Virus record (IMG/VR): IMGVR_UViG_2537561977_000030
Location: 1 to 24,811 of that record
Source: a virus
Lineage: Duplodnaviria; Heunggongvirae; Uroviricota; Caudoviricetes
Direction: 5' to 3' (one strand)
DNA length: 24,811 nucleotides
Shown: piece by piece, positions 1-23,867 of the stretch
Layout of the letters: each line of letters opens with the position of its first letter
Numbering within the stretch: the first letter of the stretch is position 1
The notes under the pieces: generated by a model
Seen by the model: only the letters and a program-made list of their open reading frames with translations
What the model was told of the DNA's origin: nothing
The model's database searches: none
Program-made: the position numbers and the translations under genes

Positions 1-581
1 TTACAACTCAGCTTGAGTTTGAAGTTCCTCTACAGGGTGATAACGATAAATCGTCGATATACCGATATCGTAAATAATTGCCAACTGTTTCCTGCTATAG
101 CCATTTTTGATCAGCCTTGCTATTTGTTCATGTTGCTCTTTTGTCAGTTTCGGACGACGTCCACCAATACGCCCCTGTGCACGTGCTGCTGCCAGTCCGG
201 CCAGTGTACGCTCTACAATTAATTCACGTTCCATTTCGGCTAAAGCCCCCATGACGTGAAAAAGAAACGCCCCATGGGTGTTGATGTGTCAATGCTGTCC
301 GTCAGACTACGGAAATTAACACCTTTTTCCCGCAATTCCTCAATAAGCGTGATCAGGTGTTTCATACTTCTGCCCAGTCTGTCCAGCTTCCAGACAACCA
401 GCGTATCTCCTTCTGATAGCGTTCTGAGCAGTTTTTTCAATCCCGGTCTGGCTGATTTCGTTCCGCTGATTTTATCTTCAAAAATCAGTTCACATCCTGC
501 GCAGTTCAGTGCATTGCGTTGTAAATCCGTGTTCTGGTCATTTGTTGACACACGAATATAGCCAATTTGCATAAAAAACAT
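1..581 (-). pseudogene. Serine DNA invertase (Hin/Gin/Pin/Cin family) split by a 1-nt frameshift
   Basis: ORF 240-581 gives an N-terminal resolvase catalytic domain (IGYIRVSTNDQNTDLQRNAL...VVWKLDRLGRSMKHL...SLTDSIDTSTPMGRFFF). ORF 1-252 in another frame gives the C-terminal part (MGALAEMERELIVERTLAGLAAARAQGRIGGRRPKLT...). Adding one A to the A5 run at 259-263 restores a continuous ...MGRFFFHVMGALAEMERE... reading, as in Gin/Pin. Confidence 0.85.
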
Positions 582-586
582 CCTCT

Positions 587-1663
587 TTGTTTCGTGAAAA
601 ATACATAGTTGGTATAGGTAGGGATAAAGACGAAAACGTTGGTTTACAGGAAACGGTAAACAAGGCTGATAACGCTGTCCAAAAGACAGGCGATACCTTG
701 TCCGGTGGACTTACTTTTGAAAACGACTCAATCCTTGCCTGGATTCGGAATACTGACTGCGCGAAGATTGGATTTAAAAATGATGCCGACAGCGACACTG
801 ATTCATACATGTGGTTTGAAACAGGCGACAACGGCAATGAATATTTCAAATGGAGACACCGCATCATTGGCACCCGGCCTAAAGACCTGATGAATCTTAA
901 ATGGAATGCTTTGTCTGTTCTTGTTGAAGCCCTTTTCAGCAGTGAAGTGAAAATATCGACAGTCAATGCACTGAGGATATTTAATTCATCTTTTGGTGCC
1001 ATTTTTCGTCGTTCTGAAGAATGCCTGCATATCATCCCTACACGAGAGAATGAGGGAGAAAATGGTAATATAGGGCCATTACGCCCCTTTACGCTTAATC
1101 TCAGAACTGGCCGGATAAGCATGGGGCATGGTCTTGATGTTACAGGGGATATATTTGCAAACCGTTTTGCAATTAACAGTAGTACCGGCATGTGGATTCA
1201 TATGCGTGACCAGAATGTTATTTTGGGACGTAATGCGGTATCCACTGATGGTGCTCAGGCTTTGCTCCGTCAGGACCATGCCGACCGCAAATTTATGATT
1301 GGCGGTCTGGGAAATAAGCAATTTGGCATCTACATGATTAATAACTCAAGGACAGCCAATGGCACCGATGGTCAGGCGTACATGGATAATAACGGGAACT
1401 GGCTTTGCGGCTCGCAAGTTATTCCCGGCAACTATGGCAATTTTGATTCCAGATATGTGAAAGATGTTCGACTTGGTTCACAGCAATATTATGGAGTGAA
1501 CAACTGGCAAACATGGAATTTTCAGTGCCCGTCAGGCTATGTACTGACGGGGATTAACGTACAGGATACCGGAAAAAACTCTGCCGATAATATTGCAGGC
1601 GTTCATTACAGGCCAGTGCAAAAGTATATAAATGGCACTTGGTATAATGTGGCGAGTATTTAA
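587..1663 (+). CDS. Alternative tail-fibre C-terminal cassette (S'v-like), silent in this orientation; the exchangeable part is about 640-1663
   Basis: Translation contains [36 protein letters not shown]... and ends [11 protein letters not shown], paralleling the C-terminus of the minus-strand fibre (INGTWYNAGSI). It starts at the crossover site and has no constant N-terminal part of its own. Confidence 0.7.
627..652. other. hix/gix-like 26-bp recombination site A (invertase crossover site)
   Basis: Plus strand AAGACGAAAACG TT GGTTTACAGGAA. Its reverse complement TTCCTGTAAACC AA CGTTTTCGTCTT shares a 14-bp arm plus core with site B at 3702-3727, in inverted orientation. Confidence 0.7.
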
Positions 1664-1664
1664 T

Positions 1665-2192
1665 ATGATGCACTTAAAGAACATAAAAGCAGGTAATGCT
1701 AAAACAGTGGAGCAGTATGAGTTAACAAAGAAGCACGGAGTCATCTGGCTTTACTCTGAGGACGGAAAAAACTGGTATGAGGAAGTGAAGAACTTTCAGC
1801 CAGACACAATAAAGATTGTTTACGATGCAAATAATATTATTGTCGCCATCACCAAAGATGCCTCCACGCTTAACCCTGAAGGTTATAGCGTCGTTGAGGT
1901 TTCTGATATTACAGCTAATCGTCGTGCTGATGATTCCGGTAAGTGGATGTTTAAGGACGGAGCTGTGGTTAAACGGATTTATACGGCTGACGAACAGCAA
2001 CAACAGGCCGAATCACAAAAGGCCGCATTGCTTTCCGAAGCTGAATCAGTCATCCAGCCGCTGGAACGCGCTGTCAGGCTGAATATGGCGACGGACGAGG
2101 AACGCACACGACTGGAAGCATGGGAACGCTACAGTGTTCTGGTCAGCCGTGTGGATACGGCAAAGCCAGAATGGCCACAAAAGCCTGAGTAA
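1665..2192 (+). CDS. Tail-fibre assembly protein, alternative copy (U'-like)
   Basis: The N-terminus [23 protein letters not shown]...[13 protein letters not shown]...NFQPDT parallels the minus-strand U-like protein. ATG lies 2 nt after the S'v stop. Confidence 0.8.
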
Positions 2193-2197
2193 AAATT

Positions 2198-2217
2198 AAG
2201 GCCCGATATCGGGCCTT
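2198..2217. terminator. Bidirectional hairpin between convergent U' and U genes
   Basis: Perfect 20-bp palindrome AAGGCCCGATATCGGGCCTT, flanked by an A-run on one side and a T-rich stretch on the other, at the centre of the invertible segment. Confidence 0.5.
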
Positions 2218-2220
2218 GTT

Positions 2221-2754
2221 TCATTCTGGTTGTTCGGGAAACGTTACTGGCAGGCTGGAGGTGTCTGTGGATTCGACCTTCTGCGCATAGAGCATCCACT
2301 CGGTTAATTTTTGTTTATTCTCGTCGGAAATAATGCCCAGCCGTAGCTGTGAGTCCCACAGCTGGGTTTTATCCCTGACGAGCTGTAGCAGGCTTTGCTT
2401 TTCATTTTCCGCTTGTTGCCTCTGCTCTTCCCCGGTATAAGTTCGCTTTATCACTACGCCATCTTTGAACATCCATTTACCTGAAATATCAGCCCGGCGA
2501 TTTGCTGTAATATCAGGAACCTCAACGACGCTTGCGCCTTCCGGATTAATTGCTGAAACATCCTTTTCAATACAAATAATAACGCCGTTGTGGTCATAGA
2601 CCATTTTCAACGTATCAGGCTGAAAGTTCTTTTGTTCCTCATACCAGTTTTTCCCATCCTCTGTATAAAGCCATTTGATGTTAAATTGCTTTGTTAGCTG
2701 GTATTGCTCTTTTGTTTCAGGATTACCAGCAGAAATGTTTTTTAAGTGCATCAT
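2221..2754 (-). CDS. Tail-fibre assembly protein (Mu U / P2 G-like)
   Basis: 177-aa ORF MMHLKNISAGNPETKEQYQLTKQ...[13 protein letters not shown]...; start is 2 nt after the fibre stop. Confidence 0.85.
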   Translation of the reverse strand: MMHLKNISAGNPETKEQYQLTKQFNIKWLYTEDGKNWYEEQKNFQPDTLKMVYDHNGVIICIEKDVSAINPEGASVVEVPDITANRRADISGKWMFKDGVVIKRTYTGEEQRQQAENEKQSLLQLVRDKTQLWDSQLRLGIISDENKQKLTEWMLYAQKVESTDTSSLPVTFPEQPE

Positions 2755-2756
2755 CG

Positions 2757-4045
2757 TTAAATACTCCCCGCGTTATACCACGTCCCATTAATGCAATACT
2801 GAATTGGCCTTGCCTGTGTTGTATCAATTAATTCATCACGGTTTCCGTTAACTGAACCCGTAACGACATAACCTGACCTGTCAGACCATCCGGGACCATT
2901 CCATGTCTGAACAGATGACAGACCGCCCAGGCGAATACCTGTAATAAACCTTGAGTTACATTCTGCCTGCGTGTATGCACCAACATCTCCCGCTGATGGC
3001 TTACGTGTTGTGGTGTAGAATTCTGACCAGTCAGCCTCAAATCCATAACCATCACGCGCTGAACGATAAAAAATACCGCCGTTCTTATAATTCACACGGA
3101 ACTGTACGGCAGGGCAACTCCCCGTATTCATATTGAAGTGGAGTATTAATGCTGTTGCGCCTTTGATATCTGCATCATAAACACCGCTATTCCAGTTCCA
3201 GCCAACAGCTTTATCATTTGCAACCCTGCTTCCTGTTTGCCCTAAAGCAAATGCAGGCTGCTGGTTTTTCGTGTTGTAGTCTCGTCGCCAGCCAGGAGCG
3301 TAAGCATCACCATGATTAATATAGGTGAATTGAGCGTTAGTGATTCCGCCGCCGCTGGACGTGCCCGGCGTGGTAACGCGTATGGTCATTGCGCCACGAG
3401 TGCCAGTAACTTCCACAACAGCACCTGCAAGACAAATATTTCCGCAACCTGTATCTGTAATGACCTTATTATTTGCATAAGCCCATGAGCCTTTGCACAT
3501 CCAGTAAGGATGGTTAAATGCCCCCTGACTCTCCAGCCACGAAATAAATTGCGCAGTTGTCCAGACCTGACTATCGCCACCAATATCCACCCATGCGCTA
3601 TATGCGCGACAGGCACCAATATTTTTGGTGAAGGTATCTTTTCCTGGAATATCTGCGCCGTTCTGGTTTTTCTGTAATGCGCCAGAAGCCTGATTTATCG
3701 CTTCCTGTAAACCAAGGTTTTTGACAAACAGCGCAGGATCAGGAATATCTGCGCCGTTCTGGTCTTTAGCCAGCTTTTCCGCCAGCTTGTTCAGTACCGT
3801 AGTCGCAAAGTTTGGATCATTACCGAGAGCGTCAGCCAGCTCTTTAAGCGTATCCAGTGTCTCAGGGGCGCTGCCTGCAAGTGCCGCAAGTGCTTTGGCC
3901 ACAAACTCCGTTGTCGCCAGCTTTTTGCTGTTATCGCCATTTGCAGGTGTAGGTGCTGTTGGTGTGCCGGTGAATGCCGGACTGGCTTTCTGTGCGTACC
4001 GGGTATGCGGGTCTGCTGCCGCGATGTGTTTCGCAAGGTCAGCCC
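2757..4045 (-). pseudogene. Tail-fibre gene, C-terminal portion (constant part to 3716, variable Sv part 3715-2757), severed from its start by the IS
   Basis: Translation has tail-fibre hallmarks (GADLAKHIAAADPHTRYAQKASPAFTGTPTAPTPANGDNSKKLATTEFV...NLGLQE...INGTWYNAGSI). The ORF in the track (2757-4169) takes its first 41 codons from inside the IS. Confidence 0.8.
3702..3727. other. hix/gix-like 26-bp recombination site B inside the tail-fibre ORF
   Basis: TTCCTGTAAACC AA GGTTTTTGACAA closely resembles hixL (TTCTTGAAAACCAAGGTTTTTGATAA) and encodes N-L-G-L-Q-E on the minus strand. Confidence 0.75.
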
Positions 4046-5339
4046 CTGAGGAATCCCCAGAAAACAAGACAGGCATAGTGAGATGTGATCTAATTGATTG
4101 TGCTAACAATTTCAAGGAGATCACCACTATGCCTGCACGTTCATTATGCCAAAATTTCCTTAACAACATACTGGCCCCTTTGCATCTTTACCGTCAAAAA
4201 TCACTGATTGACGCAACTAATGCTGTAATAAATGGCGCTTCCCTCACACTTACCAGTATCGGGCGTCATTTAACCGGTACGGCATCAGTTAAAAACAAAA
4301 TAAAGCGGGTGGATCGACTGTTGGGGAATCGACATTTGCAAAATGAGGTTTCCACCATTTTTCAGCGAATTACCCAAAAGATTACGCGGGGAATGTCTCG
4401 TGTTGTGATACTCATTGACTGGAGTGCTTATCATGCCTCTCGTTTTCAGCTTTTGCGGGCAAGCCTGGCATGTGACGGGCGTTCTTTACCGTTGATGAGT
4501 TGTGTCGTTCCATCATCACAGACAGCGAATGCAGATGTACATGAGCGTTTTCTGGAATCGCTTGCTGAGTGCTTTTCCCCCGGGACTGATGTCATTGTTA
4601 TTACAGATGCCGGTTTTCAGGGGCGATGGTTCCAACAGCTCCGCTCCCGTGGCTGGACCTATATTTGCCGGGTACTGGGCAATCATTATTACAATGTTGG
4701 TAATGGCTGGGAAAAGGTGTCGGACTCAGGCACAAAAGCATCAACGACAGCAATTTATTTAGGTGAAGGCCTGCTGGGTCGAGATAAAAATGCACAACAT
4801 GAAGGGCATTTTTATCTTTATAAAAGTAAGCCTAAAGGTCGTAGATTTAAACGCTCGAAGGAAAGAGCAACCAGACCATCGGTGACGGCTAAAGCTCGTA
4901 CTGCCGGGAAATCACCATGGTTTATTTTCACAAACAGTACTGAGTTCTCGCCAAAACAGGTAATGAAATTATACAGCCGTAGAATGCAAATTGAGCAAAA
5001 TTTCAGGGATGAAAAAAATCCTCGCTGGGGATTTGGACTACGGTTTGGTGCCAGTCATTCATCCGGGCGGGTCACGGTATTGAGTCTGATCGCAACATTA
5101 GCCAGTATCATTATGTGGTTAAGCGGTTTCAGCCTGGAAAACAAAGGGATACATCATAAATATCAGGCAAATACAGTGAAGCACAGGCGAGTCATCTCGT
5201 TATTAAAACTGGCGGAGAATGTGATTCGACATTCTCCACTCATACTAAACACACTGTCACTTGACGCAGGGCTGAAAGTTCTACAGCAACGGTATACCAA
5301 TATGATAATGGTTTACTAAATTTTCTGGGGATCCCTCAG
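4046..5339 (+). mobile_element. IS4-family (IS10-group) insertion sequence, about 1.29 kb
   Basis: 19-bp terminal inverted repeats CTGAGGAATCCCCAGAAAA (4046-4064) and, reverse-complemented, CTGAGGGATCCCCAGAAAA (5321-5339). Flanked by direct repeat AGGTCAGCCC (4036-4045 and 5340-5349). One transposase ORF. Confidence 0.85.
4129..5319 (+). CDS. IS10-like DDE transposase (396 aa)
   Basis: ATG at 4129 preceded by AAGGAGA. Translation aligns with remembered IS10 transposase blocks (KRVDRLLGNRHL..., IVITDAGF..., YSRRMQIEQNFRDEK...). The upstream part of track ORF 3721-5319 is a read-in artefact. Confidence 0.85.
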   Translation: MPARSLCQNFLNNILAPLHLYRQKSLIDATNAVINGASLTLTSIGRHLTGTASVKNKIKRVDRLLGNRHLQNEVSTIFQRITQKITRGMSRVVILIDWSAYHASRFQLLRASLACDGRSLPLMSCVVPSSQTANADVHERFLESLAECFSPGTDVIVITDAGFQGRWFQQLRSRGWTYICRVLGNHYYNVGNGWEKVSDSGTKASTTAIYLGEGLLGRDKNAQHEGHFYLYKSKPKGRRFKRSKERATRPSVTAKARTAGKSPWFIFTNSTEFSPKQVMKLYSRRMQIEQNFRDEKNPRWGFGLRFGASHSSGRVTVLSLIATLASIIMWLSGFSLENKGIHHKYQANTVKHRRVISLLKLAENVIRHSPLILNTLSLDAGLKVLQQRYTNMIMVY

Positions 5340-6087: not shown

Positions 6088-7183
6088 CGGACACCCCTGT
6101 CATGTTAAGAGTGATCGCCGTACAGTTTGCCCATTCGTTTTCTGCAACCACCCGCAGTGCCGGTGTCACCAGTTCAACCTGGTACACCCCGGAAACGGAC
6201 AATGCACTGATAATCTGGCTGGGGACAATATCGCGCCCCAGCGTGGCGGCACGTGATGCCACCCAGTTCTGTATGGCGCTGTTAGCGTTGTCCTTTACCG
6301 ACCTTGCATCCTGATCACGATAGATCGTAATCCTGGCTTCAATGGTGTAATCCACCTGAACAGGTGTTTTAGCCCGCACGGTATCAGTGAGTGGTCTGAC
6401 TTTTTCGTCAGAACAGAAACTCTCTACCAGAGTGAGGATACCGCTGTCCGGCAGACCAGTGCTGAGCAGCGGATACAGCTCGACAGTGCCGGGAGCGGGA
6501 GAAAGAACAGCGACGTCAACAATGCTGGGATGCGCCCCCATAGCATGAAAACGGTATGCACCACGGCTTCCGGCATTGGTGAATGACTCCGGGGCCAGCC
6601 TGATACGCTCCCGGAGCCGGTCATTGTCTTCCTGCTCTGAACCGCCAGAGCTGGCCGTCAGATTGGTCACCAGCAGGTCAACGTTATCAATCTCATCAAG
6701 CAACTGACTGACCTGCGCAGGTTGCCAGCCGTTGCCAGAGGTACCCGGTTCGGTACAGGTGGCCGGGGCATTGACCAGCAGCAATCCGGCCTTCAGCACC
6801 ACATCTGTATCGGTGGCAAAAATAATACTGTCGGAAGCGCTGACGCGGGTGCCTGCCGGGATCAGCACATCAATGGCCAGTGCCTCATCCACAGAGAACT
6901 GAAGTGTGGTGGTGGCAGGCTGCGCGGCAAGGCGGTATACACCAACCAGTTCTCCGAGGTAATCAATCATTGGCTCCCGGGAAAAGGCGACCAGATTCAG
7001 CTTCGCCGCCTCCTGTACCGCCACCCTGACCAGCATTTCGCGATAGGCCCACAGGTCTATCAGCAGACGTTCTGCCTGTGCCGGATACAACGTTTTGCCG
7101 GTATCCGCTTCATACTTCGCAATCATTTCTGCCGTGATTTTATCGGCATCGCGTTCAATAAAATCGGGTTCTGTCAGCGCCAT
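6080..7183 (-). CDS. Baseplate assembly protein J (P2 gpJ / Mu gp47-like)
   Basis: 367-aa ORF; position between W-like and I-like genes; J-family-like sequence. Confidence 0.75.
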   Translation of the reverse strand: MALTEPDFIERDADKITAEMIAKYEADTGKTLYPAQAERLLIDLWAYREMLVRVAVQEAAKLNLVAFSREPMIDYLGELVGVYRLAAQPATTTLQFSVDEALAIDVLIPAGTRVSASDSIIFATDTDVVLKAGLLLVNAPATCTEPGTSGNGWQPAQVSQLLDEIDNVDLLVTNLTASSGGSEQEDNDRLRERIRLAPESFTNAGSRGAYRFHAMGAHPSIVDVAVLSPAPGTVELYPLLSTGLPDSGILTLVESFCSDEKVRPLTDTVRAKTPVQVDYTIEARITIYRDQDARSVKDNANSAIQNWVASRAATLGRDIVPSQIISALSVSGVYQVELVTPALRVVAENEWANCTAITLNMTGVSDG

Positions 7184-7521
7184 AGCAGTTCCTGAGTACG
7201 GGGTTGTCCGTCTGAGCCTTTCCAGCTCACCCGGAGCGTAAGATGTTCGCCGTCGACGGCGGGTTTAACCGACATAAGCTGGCAGCGGGGTTCCCAGCGC
7301 CTGATGGCATCGACGGATTCGCGAACCACATGCGTAATGGCCCGGTCGACAGGCCAGTCGATATAAAGGTGCAGATTACTGCCGAACTCCGGGCGATGCG
7401 GGTCGCTGCCGCGGGGAGTCCGCAGGATGATCTGAATGGACTGCCGGATATCATCCAGCCCCCGGACGATTTCGCCGGGAGCCTGCAGAGCCGGTTGCCA
7501 GAATACTGAGGTCGTTTTCAT
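7174..7521 (-). CDS. Baseplate wedge protein W (GPW/gp25 family)
   Basis: 115 aa, with the ILRTPRGS...WEPR pattern typical of P2 gpW-like proteins. Confidence 0.75.
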   Translation of the reverse strand: MKTTSVFWQPALQAPGEIVRGLDDIRQSIQIILRTPRGSDPHRPEFGSNLHLYIDWPVDRAITHVVRESVDAIRRWEPRCQLMSVKPAVDGEHLTLRVSWKGSDGQPRTQELLWR

Positions 7522-7553
7522 GGGGGGCAGTATTGCCCCCGGAAGGGAACGCC

Positions 7554-7574
7554 GATATTAAAGGCGTTTAAGAA
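7554..7574 (-). promoter_or_regulatory. Conserved 21-bp motif, copy A (candidate activator-dependent late promoter)
   Basis: GATATTAAAGGCGTTTAAGAA on the plus strand is 19/21 identical to 13346-13366. On the minus strand it reads TTCTTAAACGCCTTTAATATC, containing a TAATAT -10-like hexamer with no good -35. Confidence 0.4.
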
Positions 7575-7577
7575 ATC

Positions 7578-9443: not shown

Positions 9444-10324
9444 ACACTCCTCGTCAGTATTCTGGCGGCCATTGCACTTAATCCCGGAGACATGCGGTTG
9501 AATGCTGTGCCAGCGGCGTTAAGCTGCCCGGAAACGGTATCCAGAGCACCTGCAATATTTCTTTTGTCCACACCACTCAGCGCAGACTGCGCTTGCTGTA
9601 CATACGTGGCTGCCTCACTGGCTGTTCTGGCCAGACTGATGGCTTCGGGCATGGATTCAGAGAGTGCATTAAATGCCGGAACACTTTTCCCCAGAGCTCC
9701 GGATATATTACCCAGTCCGCTCATCAGTCCCGGCACACGGGTCAGTGCGACAACGGGGTTACCCTTCATTTTCTGCGCCACCCGAACAGCACTGATAGTG
9801 GTCTGGAGTACAGACTGCGCCTGTTTCGCACAGTTGACGCCGTTACGGACGAACTGCGCCACCCCGGAAGGCGATGGAACAGCACCAGATACGGCCCCGG
9901 CACCGGGAACCTGCCTGCGTATTGCCGGCGGTTGCAGAGGATTTTTCGGGTCACCGGTGTATTCCCGGAGAGACACGGTGGCACTGACAGCCAGCACGTT
10001 ACCGGTGCTGTCTGTCTGCTCACTGGTTGCGGTCACATCGGTAATCACGAACCAGCCGCGATAGTCACCGTTGCCGAAGACCAGTGCCAGTGCCTGATGG
10101 GCCTTCATGGCTGTTCGCACTCTCGCCAGCTCCACGTCGGGCACACAATAATGCTGATGGAAGACCAGGCTTATCTGGATTTCGTCCAGCCTGTCGCCGA
10201 CGAACTGCAGGCCGGGTTTACCCCCGATGCGGGCATGCTCCGCATAATCGACGCCGGACGTGGCCTCGAAGCCGTCCCAGTAGGTAATCAGCTCAAACTC
10301 AATATCACCCAGTACGGCAAACAT
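9440..10324 (-). CDS. Tail protein (P2 gpU-like / Mu N DNA-circulation N-terminal type)
   Basis: 294 aa; N-terminal FAVLGDIEFEL...RIGGKPGLQFVGDRLDEIQISL... resembles the gpU family. Start shares a base with the tape-measure stop. Confidence 0.55.
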   Translation of the reverse strand: MFAVLGDIEFELITYWDGFEATSGVDYAEHARIGGKPGLQFVGDRLDEIQISLVFHQHYCVPDVELARVRTAMKAHQALALVFGNGDYRGWFVITDVTATSEQTDSTGNVLAVSATVSLREYTGDPKNPLQPPAIRRQVPGAGAVSGAVPSPSGVAQFVRNGVNCAKQAQSVLQTTISAVRVAQKMKGNPVVALTRVPGLMSGLGNISGALGKSVPAFNALSESMPEAISLARTASEAATYVQQAQSALSGVDKRNIAGALDTVSGQLNAAGTAFNRMSPGLSAMAARILTRSV

Positions 10325-12876: not shown

Positions 12877-13134
12877 CTATGATTTGTCGCCGTACTCGCT
12901 TCTGATTTGCTCTTCAGCCTGCTCCAGCCACATCTCCAGATCGTCAGTATCGAGGGCATCAATCTCCCCCGGCTGAAACCTGAACCACCTTGCCAGCAGC
13001 CCCTGCGCCTGCGTCAGCGCCTTCGTTGCTCTCACCCATCCCCGTGACGAGCTGAAATCGTTTCTGCAACTGCAGGTAATCAGCCAGGTCCATATTGTCG
13101 AGATCTTCCGGGAGAAGACCAGTACTGCGGGCAA
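12877..13134 (-). CDS. Frameshift-extension ORF of the tail assembly chaperone (E'-like)
   Basis: Overlaps the chaperone ORF in the +1 (equivalently -2) frame and ends just before the tape measure, the position conserved for chaperone frameshift products. Confidence 0.5.
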   Translation of the reverse strand: MPAVLVFSRKISTIWTWLITCSCRNDFSSSRGWVRATKALTQAQGLLARWFRFQPGEIDALDTDDLEMWLEQAEEQIRSEYGDKS

Positions 13135-13294
13135 TCAGCGGTTCGTCCCAGTCAGCCGGGTTTTTGCTGATTTTACGTACTTGCTTCAGGTCTTTGACCG
13201 TCAGACGTTTCAGTTCAACCAGCTCAATTCTGGTGCCTGCAGCAGTGGTGAAGGGATAAGACAGCGTAAAAATATCGGATGAGGTCTGTGACAT
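12959..13294 (-). CDS. Tail assembly chaperone (P2 gpE / Mu gp41-like)
   Basis: 111-aa acidic ORF directly upstream of the tape measure; AGGAG 7 nt before the ATG. Confidence 0.65.
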   Translation of the reverse strand: MSQTSSDIFTLSYPFTTAAGTRIELVELKRLTVKDLKQVRKISKNPADWDEPLIARSTGLLPEDLDNMDLADYLQLQKRFQLVTGMGESNEGADAGAGAAGKVVQVSAGGD

Positions 13295-13345
13295 GATGTG
13301 CTCCTGTGTAAGTTCAGGGCAGTATGTCGGGAGAAGCGCGTGACG

Positions 13346-13366
13346 GATATTAAAGGAGATTAAGAA
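13346..13366 (-). promoter_or_regulatory. Conserved 21-bp motif, copy B (candidate late promoter upstream of the chaperone gene)
   Basis: GATATTAAAGGAGATTAAGAA; on the minus strand it follows the hairpin at 13371-13384 and precedes the chaperone ATG by about 50 nt. Confidence 0.4.
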
Positions 13367-13370
13367 GAAG

Positions 13371-13384
13371 GGGCCGGAGCCCCT
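13371..13384 (-). terminator. Hairpin followed by a T-rich tract on the minus strand, downstream of the 73-aa ORF
   Basis: GGGGCCGGAGCCCC has a 5-bp GC stem and is followed on the minus strand by TTCTTCTT. Confidence 0.4.
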
Positions 13385-13390
13385 GTGATG

Positions 13391-17112: not shown

Positions 17113-17484
17113 TTATTTACTGATACCGGTGATGAGATACCCGGCATCGCCACCCACCACGGCGACTTTGTAGATATCGGTATAACGGCAGTACTTCACC
17201 TTGCCGCCGGCCCCGTCGTATTTGTCTGCAACAGGCATCCCCTTACGACGCAGGGTGTAGCCGAAGGACGGCTCGTTCTCGTCCGCGCTGTCCGCCCCGA
17301 CGGCACGCTCGGTGTCATATTCCACAAAGGCGGTTTTTCCGAAGGTCGGTACACGCACGCCTTCCTTGTCCGTCAGCACGACGGGGAAAATACGTTCGCC
17401 GATGAATGCAGCATTTTTATAGCCACGGGCGATACTGGTCAGTACCGGATCAACGACACGTTTACCTTTTAAGTAATCAGACAT
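17113..17484 (-). CDS. Hypothetical 123-aa head-region protein
   Basis: ORF between the protease/scaffold and the DUF2190-like gene; no family recognised. Confidence 0.45.
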   Translation of the reverse strand: MSDYLKGKRVVDPVLTSIARGYKNAAFIGERIFPVVLTDKEGVRVPTFGKTAFVEYDTERAVGADSADENEPSFGYTLRRKGMPVADKYDGAGGKVKYCRYTDIYKVAVVGGDAGYLITGISK

Positions 17485-17498
17485 GCTCTCTTCTTAAA

Positions 17499-18614
17499 TT
17501 ACAGGCAGCGTGCGACAGCAGCCTCATAGCTGATGCCTTCTTTTTTCGACAGGGCCACTGCTTTCTGATGCAGGGCCAGACGCTCAGGATCGGCTTCCGC
17601 AAACTCCGCCACATCCACCTTCACCGCGTCGCCGACACGATCCTTTGTGGCCTGTTCGGCGAAGTTCATCACCGGCTCCCCGTCGGAGAGCAATGAACGG
17701 AAGGCGGTGGCCAGCGGTGTGCGGCTTTCCCCCTCAGCAAACTCCACCGGCTTGTCGCCACCGGCGACGGCATCCAGCAGGGCAACCACCACGGAGGAGG
17801 CGCGGGGAGCCAGACGACCCTCTGCGACCAGTTTTTCTGCAAAGGCCACATTGTCCTTATGCAGTTGCTCCTGTCTGGCCTGTGCATCACGCGCATCGCG
17901 ATCAGCAGCCTGCTGCTTCAGGTGGCGGTTCTCCTCCTGAAGGGCTTCAATCTCTTCTTTTGTCATCGATGATTCCTCGTTACTTGCGGAAGACGGCACA
18001 TGGCCTGTCTCACTGAATTGCGCACCTGCTGCATCCTGCGACGGTGTGTCGCGGTACGCCTCTTCGCGCAGACTGTTGAGCTGCCATTCCGGCAGGACTT
18101 TTTCTGCCTCGTCCAGACTGAAGCGGGCGATCAGAAAATCGCGCAGCTTTCCCCACAGTGAGGCATTCGTGATGGCCTGCCAGTCGGCGAACTCCACCAC
18201 ACCTTCTTCCTGCTCACTGAAGGACACCTGTTTCAGCCCTTTGACGGAAGGTGGCTGTGCCCCGAGAAAGCCCACATGGCGCAGGTAGAGTACGCCGGGC
18301 TTCGGATTGGACGGTGAATCCGGGAGGTAAAAAGAGGCGGACACTTTTTTGAATCGTCCGTCGGTGACCATCTCAGCAAACTGCGGGTCCAGTTGGGCAG
18401 GCTCTGCCATCAGATCGACGCCGCTGAGCGACAGGGTTTTCACCCAGCCCCACGCCGGGTCTTCCGTTCTGGGATGACCAATCACGAGTGGTGCTTCATG
18501 GACGGACGGGTCATAGGCTTTCACGCAGGCGGCAAGATCGTCTGGCGTGAACGGCAGTTTTTTGCCGTGCATATCGGTATGAGTACCGGCTTTAAAAATG
18601 TGAATGGCTGACAT
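17499..18614 (-). CDS. Head maturation protease/scaffold (Mu gpI-like)
   Basis: 371 aa; an N-terminal protease-like domain and a charged coiled-coil C-terminal half (EEIEALQEENRHLKQQAADRDARDAQARQEQ) typical of scaffolds. Confidence 0.65.
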   Translation of the reverse strand: MSAIHIFKAGTHTDMHGKKLPFTPDDLAACVKAYDPSVHEAPLVIGHPRTEDPAWGWVKTLSLSGVDLMAEPAQLDPQFAEMVTDGRFKKVSASFYLPDSPSNPKPGVLYLRHVGFLGAQPPSVKGLKQVSFSEQEEGVVEFADWQAITNASLWGKLRDFLIARFSLDEAEKVLPEWQLNSLREEAYRDTPSQDAAGAQFSETGHVPSSASNEESSMTKEEIEALQEENRHLKQQAADRDARDAQARQEQLHKDNVAFAEKLVAEGRLAPRASSVVVALLDAVAGGDKPVEFAEGESRTPLATAFRSLLSDGEPVMNFAEQATKDRVGDAVKVDVAEFAEADPERLALHQKAVALSKKEGISYEAAVARCL

Positions 18615-18828
18615 TTTGCTGTCCCGCGTTATGTTGTCGGAGACAGTTTGTGAGAAATGCAGGCCCGGCGATTTTAATCTGCTTTAGAAAACATCAGGGG
18701 AGAAGGACAGGGAAAGCAATGCGGTGAACCGGAGGCGGTTATAAAACAGAGGCTGTAAAGCCTTTATAAAGGTAATACAGCCCCTCAGTTGCTGGCAATG
18801 ATAAATCACCCGCCTGAAGGGAGAAACC

Positions 18829-19289: not shown

Positions 19290-20111
19290 TTATCCTCTCA
19301 GTTCCTGTTGTGCCAGTGGCTGAAGCGTACCCTGATAGCGGGCAAGGTCGGGACGGTATGCTGCCCCCGGTGCATAAGACCAGCCGACGTCGGTGGTCAC
19401 CTTCGTGGTGCCGGTATTAAAGGTGGCCACGTTCCGCATTTCGCCGGTTTTCTCTGAGACCAGTTTCAGTTCATGGCCCATGGCAGAGCCGGAGCTGATA
19501 ACCTTCAGGCCACGGGCACGTACATCCGCCGCACTCAGGGCAATCACACTACAGCGGCAGCGCCAGCCGTTCGGCGGGTAAAATGCCTGCCAGAACGGGT
19601 CATCCCAGCGCAGCACCAGACCATGCAGCGCCAGATGGCTCCTGCGGGTATGGCTGTCGTTGATGCCGGTATACATCCAGTACGGCCTGTCGTCGACGTT
19701 TTCCATCTGTTCCGCCCAACGACCGGCGCTGTAGAGTACGGACATATTGGTGCGAAAGATGGTATCGAGCCGCCACGAACTGCCCTGCTGAATGGTGACC
19801 GGCTCACCCGTTACCGGGTCAGTCGTGTCACTCGGTCCCCACCATCCCCTGCGCTTCAGCGCCGGCTCCAGCTCCTGCCGGAACCAGCGATCGGTTTTTC
19901 CTTCATCGACAGCCTGCTGCAGTGTCCCACGAATATCTTCCAGGATATCCAGGCGGGTCACTTTAGCGACGGTAAAGGCGCGGGCATGGGCTTCCTGCCA
20001 CATTTCTTCCCAGTCCCAGGTAATCTGATACCCTTTGGACTTCAGGTAGCTGATTGCCCGCTTCGGGGGAAGCGTCATGCAGTACGCCAGTTCAGCCGTT
20101 GTCACGCTCAT
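19290..20111 (-). CDS. Head morphogenesis protein (Mu F / SPP1 gp7 family)
   Basis: F-family-like sequence. Likely ATG at 20111 with a GGGGG ribosome-binding site; the track start at 20138 is TTG. Confidence 0.75.
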   Translation of the reverse strand: MSVTTAELAYCMTLPPKRAISYLKSKGYQITWDWEEMWQEAHARAFTVAKVTRLDILEDIRGTLQQAVDEGKTDRWFRQELEPALKRRGWWGPSDTTDPVTGEPVTIQQGSSWRLDTIFRTNMSVLYSAGRWAEQMENVDDRPYWMYTGINDSHTRRSHLALHGLVLRWDDPFWQAFYPPNGWRCRCSVIALSAADVRARGLKVISSGSAMGHELKLVSEKTGEMRNVATFNTGTTKVTTDVGWSYAPGAAYRPDLARYQGTLQPLAQQELRG

Positions 20112-21108
20112 GCAGACGCCCCCAGATATTTGCCACAAAGAGAATGCGGGCCAGCCGTTCCTGCAGATCGTCCGTGTTCATCTGAGGGTAGAGCTCCGCC
20201 AGTTCGCCCAGCAGCTCAGACGGGTTAACCCCATTTTCGACCCGCTTAAACAGAGGTGCCAGGACGGGTTCCAGCGTGCCATTTAACGCGCCTCCGTTCA
20301 TCAGAATGTCCAGCGCGTCGTCAAGCTGCTGCTGAGCCTGAATATCGGCATCAATCGCCTCGGCAAATGACAGCGGCAACATGTTCTTCTCGCGTTCTGA
20401 CGGTGGTGTCTCGTCAATATCGCCGTCCTGCAGCTGGTACTCACGCTTAAAGTATTGCGGGGTCAGACGCAGACCCGCCCGGGTGAGTTTTTCGTCGCGG
20501 GTGGCACGGGTGTCATCAATGGCCTCCTGTTCCCACATGGCCCAGACCGGACACGGCACATCGCCGAAGTTCAGGGTGACCACCGTTCTGATGACCTGAT
20601 TCACTGCCGCCTGAATGATGTCCGCATCCGCATCGCGGATATCAGCCGTTACCTCCAGCCCGGCCTGTGCAGAGGCCTTGTTACTGTTCGCTTCCGTGGT
20701 CTGATTCTGACCGAGTAATGCAATGGAGATCTCACTGCGTGACAGCGTGATCAGCTCGCGGAATACCTCGCTGCTGTCCGCCTTGCCATCCGCGGCTTTG
20801 AGTTCGATGCTGCTGTCATCGGGGATGGCGGCCACCGCGTCCTCCACCATCTGCTCCATGGAGTCCAGCAGTTTTTCAATCTCTGCATCATTTGCACCCC
20901 TCGGGTGCTTACCGATCACCCACGGGGAGCCAAACTTTTCGGCAAAGCGGAGCCAGAATTTCATCCCGCCTTTCTTGAAGGCGACCGGCCAGAAGCACAT
21001 GGACAGATCCGGAAAACCGTAAGGATTGTCATAGGATGCATCCTGTGCCGGCACCACGAATTTTGACGGTGACAACAGCTCACCCTCCACACCCGCATCA
21101 CGTGCCCG
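20092..21108 (-). pseudogene. Portal protein (Mu gp29 / DUF935-type), N-terminally truncated remnant
   Basis: About 335 codons where DUF935 portals run about 500. An in-frame stop lies immediately upstream at 21109-21111, and there is no credible start or ribosome-binding site. Confidence 0.65.
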
Positions 21109-21955: not shown

Positions 21956-22635
21956 CAGATCAGAATAAACACATTGAGAAACTGAAAAAGTTGCTGGCGC
22001 TGGCTGCATCCGGCAACCCGCACGAGGCCGCTCTTGCACTGCGCCGTGCCCGTAAACTGATGGATGTTCACGGCATCACACATTCCGACATAGCCATGAG
22101 TGATATTGATGAAACCATCAGTCACTACTGGCCGACAGGCAGCCTCCGTCCACCGCGCTACATGCCAGGCCTGATGAACATCATCCGCGAGGCATTTGGT
22201 GTTAACTCCATCATTCACCCCGGCACATATCCGGGTGTGGGGTTCTACGGCAACCGGGAACGGGCCGCACTGGCTGCGTACACCTGGGAGGTGCTGGCCC
22301 GCCAGTTGAAAAAGGCGCGTCAGCAATATATCAGCGCACAGAACAAAAGAATAAAAACTGCCACCCGTACCAGCCGTGGTGACCAGTTTGCTGAAGGCTG
22401 GGTGCTGGCCGTTATCAGTGAAATACAGTCCTTCGCCCTGACCGATGACGAACGTGAACTGATGCAGCAGTGGCTGGAACATAAATACCCGCAAACGCAA
22501 ACCACCAGGGCGCGTAAACCGGGAAGAAGTCGCAATGGCGACGCCTCGCGCTATGCGGGGTTTCGTGAAGGGCAGAACGTCAGACTGCACCGCCCGGTCA
22601 GTGGGCAGGAACAACAGAAACTGGAGGCCAGATGA
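21952..22635 (+). CDS. DUF2786-like domain protein
   Basis: 227 aa; N-terminal KHIEKLKKLLALAASGNPHEAALALRRARKLM motif as recalled for DUF2786; ATGA start overlap with the upstream gene. Confidence 0.5.
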   Translation: MTDQNKHIEKLKKLLALAASGNPHEAALALRRARKLMDVHGITHSDIAMSDIDETISHYWPTGSLRPPRYMPGLMNIIREAFGVNSIIHPGTYPGVGFYGNRERAALAAYTWEVLARQLKKARQQYISAQNKRIKTATRTSRGDQFAEGWVLAVISEIQSFALTDDERELMQQWLEHKYPQTQTTRARKPGRSRNGDASRYAGFREGQNVRLHRPVSGQEQQKLEAR

Positions 22636-22862: not shown

Positions 22863-23067
22863 ATCTGTTGTATGTGCCCTGTTCTGGTATTGTTTTGTCG
22901 GTTGGTGTACTGCTGAACTGCACCGCCGTTCAGGGTTTTATTCACGTTACAGTGGTGCCAGCTACTGGATTAGCTGGTCGGTGATGTTCCTGTGCTGGCC
23001 TGTGGCGCTTCCTTTATATGTCGATTATATCGGTGGCGCAGGTAAAAGGAGCAACGATGATGACTAA
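22852..23067 (+). CDS. Small membrane protein (71 aa, two predicted transmembrane segments)
   Basis: ATG at 22852; hydrophobic stretches VVCALFWYCFVGW and WISWSVMFLCWPVALPL. Confidence 0.4.
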   Translation: MTAESVVCALFWYCFVGWCTAELHRRSGFYSRYSGASYWISWSVMFLCWPVALPLYVDYIGGAGKRSNDDD

Positions 23068-23509
23068 ACAACGTCTTATCCAGCTCATTCATATTGCCCG
23101 TAATGAACTGGGTATGGATGAAGACACCTACCGCCAGATGTTACAGGGGCTGACCGGTAAAGCCTCAACCAAAGGAATGGATACCACACAACTAAACTGC
23201 GTGCTGGAATCCATGAAAAGGAAAGGCTTTCGCGTTAAGCCTGCCGGAAAAGCCAGCTCCGGTTTACCGCTGGATAACCATCCGCAGTCCAGGAAAATCC
23301 GTGCGCTATGGCTTGAAATGGCTGCTGCCGGCATTGTTCGTGACCGTTCAGAAAATGCATTAGCGCGGTGGATCAAGCGGGAAACGGGCATCAGCGCCCT
23401 GCGCTGGCTCAATACTGAACAGGCAAGCAGTGTTATTGAGAAACTGAAGAAGTGGCAGCACAGAGCTGCGGGAGTAAAACATGAGCGACCTGAATCAGTT
23501 TCGAAGTAA
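23057..23509 (+). CDS. gemA: GemA-like protein (Mu gp16 family, DUF1018)
   Basis: MMTKQRLIQLIHIARNELGMDEDTYRQMLQGLTGKAS...MKRKGF...SRKIRALWLEMAAAGIVRDRSENALARWIKRETGISALRWL matches the gp16 family pattern; AAAGGAG before the ATG. Confidence 0.75.
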   Translation: MMTKQRLIQLIHIARNELGMDEDTYRQMLQGLTGKASTKGMDTTQLNCVLESMKRKGFRVKPAGKASSGLPLDNHPQSRKIRALWLEMAAAGIVRDRSENALARWIKRETGISALRWLNTEQASSVIEKLKKWQHRAAGVKHERPESVSK

Positions 23510-23867
23510 AGGGCCGGAACTCCTGGTGGAGCTGGCACAGCATACCTCTGAGACCGTTCGCGAGATTATTGATATTGAGCCCGAAGTTGCCGACCAGATT
23601 GGTCAGGCCGTCGCGAACCGCATGATGCAGGTCTGGGGCGGGCAAAACGTTTATTTTCCTATGGGGATGAGATGGAAGATAAGCCAGCGTGACCGTGAAA
23701 TCTATGAGGCGTTTAACGGACGTAACCACCACGAACTGTCCCGCAGATTCAGGGTTTCAGTTCCCTGGATTTACAACCTGGTGAAGCGCGTAAGAAAGGA
23801 AGAAATCAGCCGGTTGCAGGGGCAGTTATTCGAAGACGATGATGAACCGGATGACAGCCGGGATTAA
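23481..23867 (+). CDS. mor: Mor/C-family transcriptional activator (Mu middle operon regulator-like)
   Basis: 128 aa; C-terminal GGQNVYFPMGMRWKISQRDREIYEAFNGRNHHELSRRFRVSVPWIYNLVKRVRK matches the Mor/C helix-turn-helix region; directly follows the gemA-like gene, as in Mu. Confidence 0.8.
   Translation: MSDLNQFRSKGPELLVELAQHTSETVREIIDIEPEVADQIGQAVANRMMQVWGGQNVYFPMGMRWKISQRDREIYEAFNGRNHHELSRRFRVSVPWIYNLVKRVRKEEISRLQGQLFEDDDEPDDSRD

Follow-up and report, generated by a model that had tools for sequence, protein, structure and literature searches.

A TTAA-N6-TTAA dyad as candidate operator of Mor/C-dependent late promoters in a BcepMu-like prophage

A 21-bp motif that occurs twice in a 24,811-nt stretch of viral DNA (the whole of which we call the window) is probably the operator of activator-dependent late promoters, to which the single Mor/C-family protein of the prophage would bind as C does in phage Mu; we put the probability of this reading at roughly 70%. 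On the coding strand, the proposed promoter plan consists of a dyad with conserved flanks (TTCTTAA...CCTTTAATATC), 23 nt of free sequence, a -10 hexamer of the form nAnnCT and a purine 7 nt further on. The Mor/C-family protein would bind the dyad, centred at about -42.5, and once bound would recruit sigma-70 RNA polymerase, like Mu C at Plys, PI, PP and Pmom. Three such promoters are proposed in the window, serving the chaperone/tape-measure, W-J-I-fibre and head protease/scaffold operons, and a fourth, that of the lysis genes, would have been lost by deletion. Binding of the dyad by the Mor-like protein, the start points and the leaderless translation of W described below are predictions made from sequence.

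The prophage, the motif pair and the extended element

The window carries a BcepMu-like prophage (Mu-like, transposable) of Enterobacteriaceae. Over the tail region it shares 88-94% identity with Escherichia phage PhiKM and Klebsiella phage KP12, and the V-W region was found in 636 of 5,426 complete E. coli genomes. Relative to PhiKM, about 13.8 kb are missing, comprising the N-terminus of the portal gene, terminase, lysis, repressor, transposase and gam, and a second deletion has removed part of the major capsid gene (Table 1). Because of these deletions we regard the prophage as defective, and the late promoters in the window may therefore be relics. The tail module and the Mor-like gene seem intact despite the deletions.

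At the left end of the window, a DNA invertase gene (positions 1-581, minus strand) is broken into two overlapping ORFs, 240-581 with the resolvase N-terminal domain and 1-252, which suggests a frameshift or a pseudogene; position 1 of the window coincides exactly with the stop codon of this gene. The adjoining segment, 587-4169, is an invertible tail-fibre cassette like the G segment of Mu. It contains two opposed sets of fibre C-terminus and assembly-chaperone genes (587-2192 on the plus strand and 2221-4169 on the minus strand), long inverted repeats (1610-2021 versus 2398-2810, and 633-684 versus 3670-3721) and a 26-nt direct repeat at 3646 and 3742.

The initial annotation had drawn attention to two 21-mers, identical at 19 of 21 positions, in minus-strand intergenic regions ahead of the W-like gene and the chaperone gene; both the coordinates and the identity proved correct, and the gene map bears out the placement. 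The late region has few intergenic gaps, two of which are occupied by the motif copies, and the genes around them lie on the minus strand. When the window was searched with up to three mismatches, copies 1 and 2 were the sole matches, with 0.01 expected from shuffled sequences. With no preset pattern, a direct pair of 21-mers identical at 19 or more positions is expected 0.12 times per Markov-simulated 24.8-kb window. Taken alone, the pair is only moderately unlikely, and hence suggestive; it is the genomic context that gives it significance. Another 21-mer pair with at least 19 identities, ATTGAGAAACTGAARAAGT, was noticed at 21973-21993 and 23435-23455, within two early-region ORFs including GemA; chance or a peptide motif common to both ORFs may account for it.

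On the coding strand, the similarity runs past the 21-mer and delimits a 50-bp bipartite element in copies 1 and 2. The second shared block, ATACTGCC, lies 20 nt downstream of the 21-mer at identical spacing in both copies. The parts of the element are, in order, a TTAA-N6-TTAA dyad inside the 21-mer, each half-site being itself palindromic, a spacer whose length is constant and whose sequence is free, and an (A/C)ATACTG block that is conserved. The A and the T of this block would occupy -11 and -7 if it held the -10 hexamer of a sigma-70 promoter. With (A/C)ATACT taken as the -10, the dyad would span -49 to -36 and the 21-mer about -52 to -32, positions reckoned from that hexamer, and a purine is found exactly 7 nt past the hexamer. 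A -35 hexamer is absent at 17 ± 1 bp, where the sequences TATCGG and TATCCG match TTGACA at one position of six. A sigma-70 consensus scan of the window reported none of the hexamers AATACT, CATACT and CAAACT.

The transcript from the chaperone promoter is predicted to have a 20-nt leader, in which AGGAG (13301-13305) precedes the ATG at 13294 by 6 nt. The hairpin just upstream of copy 2 (read 13384-13369) has the properties of an intrinsic terminator, namely a 6-bp stem with five GC pairs, a 4-nt loop and the tail TCTTCTTAAT, and it is kept in relatives. The third, weaker site is located in the 214-bp gap that leads from the G-like gene to the head protease/scaffold gene, and relatives as well as BcepMu keep a site there. 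Of the three window sites, those of the chaperone and head operons have a terminator-like hairpin ahead of them.

Table 1 Positions of the motif copies, the proposed promoter parts and the neighbouring genes in the window
Feature	Position	Strand	Remark
Motif copy 1	7554-7574	-	plus-strand letters GATATTAAAGGCGTTTAAGAA; coding strand TTCTTAAACGCCTTTAATATC
Motif copy 2	13346-13366	-	plus-strand letters GATATTAAAGGAGATTAAGAA; coding strand TTCTTAATCTCCTTTAATATC
Gap with copy 1	7522-7577	-	between V-like (spike) and W-like (gpW/gp25-like) genes
Gap with copy 2	13295-13390	-	between 73-aa ORF and tail-assembly chaperone gene
Dyad of copy 1	7558-7571	-	TTAA-ACGCCT-TTAA
Dyad of copy 2	13350-13363	-	TTAA-TCTCCT-TTAA
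Proposed -10 of W promoter	7529-7534	-	AATACT; 23 nt after dyad
Proposed -10 of chaperone promoter	13321-13326	-	CATACT
W start codon	7521-7519	-	ATG; predicted transcription start A7521 or C7522
Predicted transcription start, chaperone promoter	A13314	-	predicted from sequence
GC-rich inverted repeat at W	7523-7540	-	GGGGGCA-ATAC-TGCCCCC; encloses W -10, ends just before ATG
gpW/gp25-like baseplate wedge gene	7174-7521	-	Pfam GPW_gp25, E=3.9e-13
Tail assembly chaperone gene (E-like)	12959-13294	-	Pfam Phage_TAC_7, E=8e-21
Terminator-like hairpin upstream of copy 2	13369-13384	-	AGGGGCTCCGGCCCCT; T-rich tail enters 5' end of motif
Third, weaker site	18645-18687	-	CTAA-AGCAGA-TTAA, 23 nt, CAAACT (hexamer 18645-18650)
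Predicted start of third site	G18638	-	ATG at 18614
Long terminator-like hairpin with T-tract	18743-18785	-	after G-like gene, upstream of third site
571-bp deletion versus PhiKM	17287-17298		in major capsid gene; leaves 123-aa ORF at 17113-17484
Junction of ~13.8-kb deletion	21100-21108		between truncated portal gene (20092-21090) and early genes from 21146
GemA gene	23018-23509		early region
Mor/C-family activator gene	23481-23867	+	Pfam Mor, E=5e-41

The element was compared in two sets of loci (cited by L numbers), namely 160 IMG/VR loci fetched with gpW-like and G-like protein probes, and 73 genome loci from a genome-wide probe, which come from Erwinia, Photorhabdus, Xenorhabdus, Pectobacterium, Brenneria, Dickeya, Salmonella diarizonae, Pseudomonas, Burkholderia, Paraburkholderia and others. 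Both blocks are retained across these ~230 loci; what lies between them is highly variable in sequence and constant in length. The sites fall into four positional classes (lysis, head protease, chaperone and W), each intergenic, on the coding strand and at the head of an operon, and the classes are conserved in 80 loci. KP12, PhiKM and BcepMu have exactly one site per class, giving four per intact genome, and the window has three. Strand bias was very strong among these related loci, whose match counts are non-independent events: 207 matches fell on the coding strand versus 1 on the opposite strand in 1.46 Mb, and 85 versus 12 in the distant set.

The copy 1 motif is conserved in 43 distinct variants of the V-W gap, and the W motif is retained where the end of the upstream gene has been replaced outright (L011, L062, L073 and L076). 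In distant relatives, from Enterobacterales, Pseudomonas and Burkholderia, the architecture holds at the chaperone and W positions. Columns outside those used to select the sites are conserved as well, namely T at -52 and -50, A at -34, C at -32 and G at -6. The lysis-class copy of PhiKM, CTCTTAACGCGCTTTAAAATC ... TGtGATGCT, lies just before the holin-like first late gene, in a region deleted from the window.

Some further matches in relatives deserve mention. PhiKM (L004) has sites at 32248-32261 and 30846-30859, both in regions deleted from the window. At its symmetric lysis dyad, the opposite strand too has a suitably spaced hexamer, CAGGAT, which faces the divergent gene 31457..32185. An extra PhiKM site, CTAA-ACCACA-TTAA ... 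CATCAT, is found in a 100-nt gap upstream of a DNA adenine methylase gene and recalls Mu Pmom. A TTAA-N6-TTAA in the DNA invertase gene of relatives was judged coincidental, as it lies in coding sequence with no -10 at the right distance.

The activator gene and comparison with phage Mu

The presence of a Mor/C-family activator gene in the window, also claimed by the initial annotation, was confirmed by the Pfam match. In its DNA-binding half, the encoded 128-aa protein stands nearer to Mu C (42% identity over 76 aa) than to Mu Mor (29% identity). BLASTP returned Mu C at 3e-16 and Mu Mor at 3e-13, and the PDB matches were 9l0x, 9vw8 and 1rr7. Among the DNA-contact residues of Mu C reported from a cryo-EM complex (bioRxiv 10.1101/2025.05.02.651988), Q113 and Q116 correspond to W and N in the Mor-like protein, and these two differing contact residues would fit a half-site differing from that of Mu. 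The KP12 and PhiKM genomes each contain one Mor/C-family gene and no second. Mu has both Mor and C, and the one Mor/C gene of the BcepMu-like lineage therefore suggests a two-tier cascade, early to late, with no separate middle stage of transcription. Mor genes were also sought in the fetched flanks of the distant loci, which gave BcepMu and two weak matches; most lie outside these flanks.

The late promoters of Mu have no -35, C binds there to a 16-bp imperfect dyad centred at -43.5, and positions -52 to -34 are required (PMC2582627). According to the Mu record, their -10 hexamers are TAGACT, CAAACT, TATCCT and TAAGAT, and in all four a distance of 24 nt separates the hexamer from the right half-site ATAA upstream of it, as against 23 nt in the window sites. 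The promoters proposed here share with these C-dependent ones a -10 of nAnnCT type, the absence of a -35, and a 4-bp/N6/4-bp dyad that overlaps the -35 region and keeps a constant distance from the -10. In both cases the promoter occurs more than once, in front of the operons for lysis, head and tail, terminators lie upstream, and the activator gene adjoins gemA. The third site in particular parallels Mu PI, which occupies the same G-to-I gap, follows a terminator and also has CAAACT.

Several features differ. The dyad centre, at about -42.5 here and -43.5 in Mu, places the window dyad 1 bp closer to the -10. The Mu C box is TTAT-N6-ATAA with a C-rich flank, whereas the half-sites here are TTAA and TTAA with a (T/A)A(T/G)C flank; the window site is thus not a Mu C box, the geometry being alike and the half-sites different. 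Mu PP lies within N, whereas the tail promoters of the window precede the chaperone and W genes, and, as a further difference from Mu, the W promoter abuts a start codon. Mu Pm, which is activated by Mor, agrees with the window sites in the protein family of its activator, in how far the dyad stands from the -10 and in the location of the activator gene, which here takes Mor's place after gemA; the Pm dyad, however, is a GC-rich terminator-like repeat, GCCGG-TTAAT-CCGGC.

The dyad might instead be the target of another protein, whether a phage repressor, a nucleoid protein or a CRP/FNR-type class II activator from the host, or be a conserved sequence at module boundaries that serves recombination. 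A dyad near -42 is also the class II position of CRP and FNR, and the link to Mor is one of analogy and co-occurrence only. We nevertheless consider such an assignment improbable, since the half-sites lack the G/C positions that define the FNR (TTGAT) and CRP (TGTGA) boxes, and phages of Enterobacterales, Pseudomonas and Burkholderia alike retain the element. Moreover, the marked operon heads are exactly those that are C-dependent in Mu, and no late activator family other than that of the Mor/C homologue is known from the KP12 and PhiKM genomes.

Probable position of the -10 box

The initial annotation had proposed an activator-dependent late promoter of the Mor/C type that lacks a -35, with TAATAT, inside the motif, as its -10. 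The comparative evidence strongly supports the promoter and its type; the internal anatomy is not borne out, the -10 having very probably been misplaced. In 99 non-redundant sites, the last base of this hexamer is G in 50, T in 40, C in 5 and A in 4, and T(-7) is near-invariant in sigma-70 promoters. TAATAT is the right TTAA half-site of the dyad together with its flank. We tested the -10 on non-redundant sites selected by the dyad only: the combination of A(-11) with T(-7) occurred at 54 of 71 coding-strand dyads versus 6 of 87 on the opposite strand, the latter being about the chance rate. In every dyad-anchored W site, the second base of the hexamer is A and the sixth is T. The true -10 box most likely lies 20 bp downstream of the earlier placement. 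The predicted starts are about 32 nt downstream of the motif, so that discarding the promoter for want of a start within some 10 nt downstream, as had been envisaged, would wrongly reject a real one.

If TAATAT were the -10 after all, transcription would start about 7-10 nt past the motif and the activator would be bound further upstream. TAATAT and TAAAAT do look like TATAAT, and a -35 is absent 17 bp upstream of TAATAT. This arrangement strikes us as very unlikely, since about half of the sites end the hexamer in G, e.g. TAAAAG in the head-gene class and also in Pseudomonas, and the second conserved block at its fixed spacing would be left unexplained. In addition, the sequence above the motif is unconserved, being wholly swapped in the four loci with a replaced upstream gene end, so there is no place in it for an activator site.

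A single public start map was found for a BcepMu host, dRNA-seq of B. cenocepacia J2315, in which uninduced biofilm lysogens had no start at the homologous late positions; the cells being uninduced, this absence is uninformative. The J2315 tables list few starts within the prophage, and the start closest to the lysis genes (gp20, -21) is preceded by a regular -35/-10 pair and lacks the dyad. A search of the literature on BcepMu promoters, on RdgB and on a leaderless mRNA of P2 gene V found nothing usable.

The Ogr/Delta site of phage P2, TGT-N12-ACA, is centred at about -55. A promoter of this type was considered for the window and rejected, as the sequence upstream of -52 is unconserved and is swapped in L011, L062, L073 and L076 while the motif stays.

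Layout of the proposed W promoter and its inverted repeat

The W transcript is predicted to begin on the A of the ATG or on the nucleotide just before it; this A is the purine 7 nt past the hexamer. Most loci that keep the dyad have 6 nt between the hexamer and the W ATG, and the window, like a few further loci, has 7; Enterobacterales, Pseudomonas and Burkholderia loci share this 6-7 nt spacing. Owing to an additional C in the window, A7521 and C7522 are both candidate starts, and the W mRNA is predicted to be leaderless or to carry a 1-nt leader. No Shine-Dalgarno sequence was found at a functional spacing before W; the sole purine run, GGGGG, is at least 14 nt off and lies in a hairpin stem, and other lineages have no such run before W.

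The lambda cI mRNA is leaderless. In the P2 record (AF063097), the start of the V-W-J-I-H-G transcript is annotated at 10308, which is the start of the V CDS and the first base of the start codon, and a leaderless baseplate operon therefore has precedent. P2 PV resembles the layout predicted for the W promoter in that it is an activator-dependent late promoter of a baseplate/fibre operon with its annotated start on the start codon of the first gene. It differs in its activator, the zinc-finger protein Ogr, in a binding site annotated farther upstream (10239-10266) and in an operon that begins at V, whereas the operon here begins at W; no sequence similarity to PV was found.

In BcepMu (L166, 18812-18865), the annotated start of gp32, the equivalent of Mu I, falls within the predicted promoter. 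Protein alignment with the window homologue suggests that the true start is the third ATG (MNAKPLHIF...). This ATG is 7 nt after the predicted -10 (GATGAT), and BcepMu gp32 may therefore be leaderless as well.

The W -10 is enclosed by a GC-rich inverted repeat (Table 1). Folding of the hairpin gave about -11 kcal/mol in a relative (z -3.3) and -23.1 kcal/mol for the whole gap (z -3.6). The stems differ between lineages: GGGGCA/TGCCCC in enterics, GCGGC/GCCGC in BcepMu (L166 30804-30819), GCCGC/GCGGC in L214, CCGAC/GTCGG in L220, GCGCG/CGCGC in L231-L234 and GGCAGGC/GCCTGCC in L230, with folding z-scores of about -2 to -3.6. This variation in stem sequence resembles covariation. Across the window, L166 and loci L167-L237, the repeat is strong in Enterobacterales, in BcepMu-type phages and in some others and weak in many Pseudomonas loci; with a mean z of -1.25 over 30 non-redundant sequences, the hairpin was rejected as a universal feature.

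In the most distant loci, L230-L237 (Roseospira, Pigmentiphaga, a Burkholderiaceae MAG, Devosia and Ectothiorhodospiraceae), the layout of hexamer, 6 nt and ATG is kept, and the TTAA dyad is replaced by CCCGGAC-N-GTCCGGG or CCCGGAA-N-TTCCGGG, about 55 to 35 nt before the gpW homologue. The CCCGGA...TCCGGG palindrome looks like a switch of operator specificity. A bolder proposal, which we regard as possible although we would not count on it, is that BcepMu-like phages express W only from the leaderless mRNA, whose start is fixed by the -10 within the GC-rich repeat, that this repeat folds in read-through transcripts of the upstream tail operon into a hairpin next to an ATG without Shine-Dalgarno sequence and so silences W, and that L230-L237, from alpha-proteobacterial and other relatives, form a natural series of operator-specificity switches of Mor/C proteins. 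If so, synthesis of the baseplate wedge would be uncoupled from the upstream tail genes and strictly dependent on the activator, and the leaderless layout would be kept from Burkholderia to Escherichia, in parallel to the P2 V operon.

The motif and the hairpins could alternatively act in read-through mRNA, as an RNA-level site for RNase E-type processing or for a translational regulator. An AU-rich motif in a GC-rich context with hairpins alongside would suit such a site, and W, having no Shine-Dalgarno sequence, needs a special route of expression. Two-fold symmetry in the DNA and a fixed distance to a hexamer with -11 and -7 bases are, however, properties of a promoter, and the element also heads the first late operon. 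The AACGCC/GGCGTT hairpin over copy 1 was rejected as a selected structure, since its 3' arm varies in relatives without compensation, and an Rfam scan of the whole window at the gathering threshold gave no match. We give an RNA-level site little credence. Chance likeness of two AT-rich intergenic stretches, which the expectation of 0.12 such pairs per window might have allowed, is effectively refuted already by the comparative data, with both copies on the same strand, both intergenic, the second block at equal spacing, and the element present in ~230 loci from several bacterial orders.

The Mu-style late switch by Mor/C proteins is known; a distinct TTAA-N6-TTAA operator in the BcepMu lineage would be new. 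The analysis yields a testable regulon for the widespread BcepMu-like prophages, in which the single Mor/C-type activator is assigned an operator, a -10 and a set of predicted starts. It corrects the places in which to look for transcription starts and flags a conserved candidate for a leaderless baseplate transcript. For a structurally unusual activator family, whose Mor and C complexes with RNA polymerase are now solved, TTAA-N6-TTAA would constitute a second natural DNA specificity. For annotation, the late operons of such prophages and of related tail clusters would become delimitable from sequence alone.
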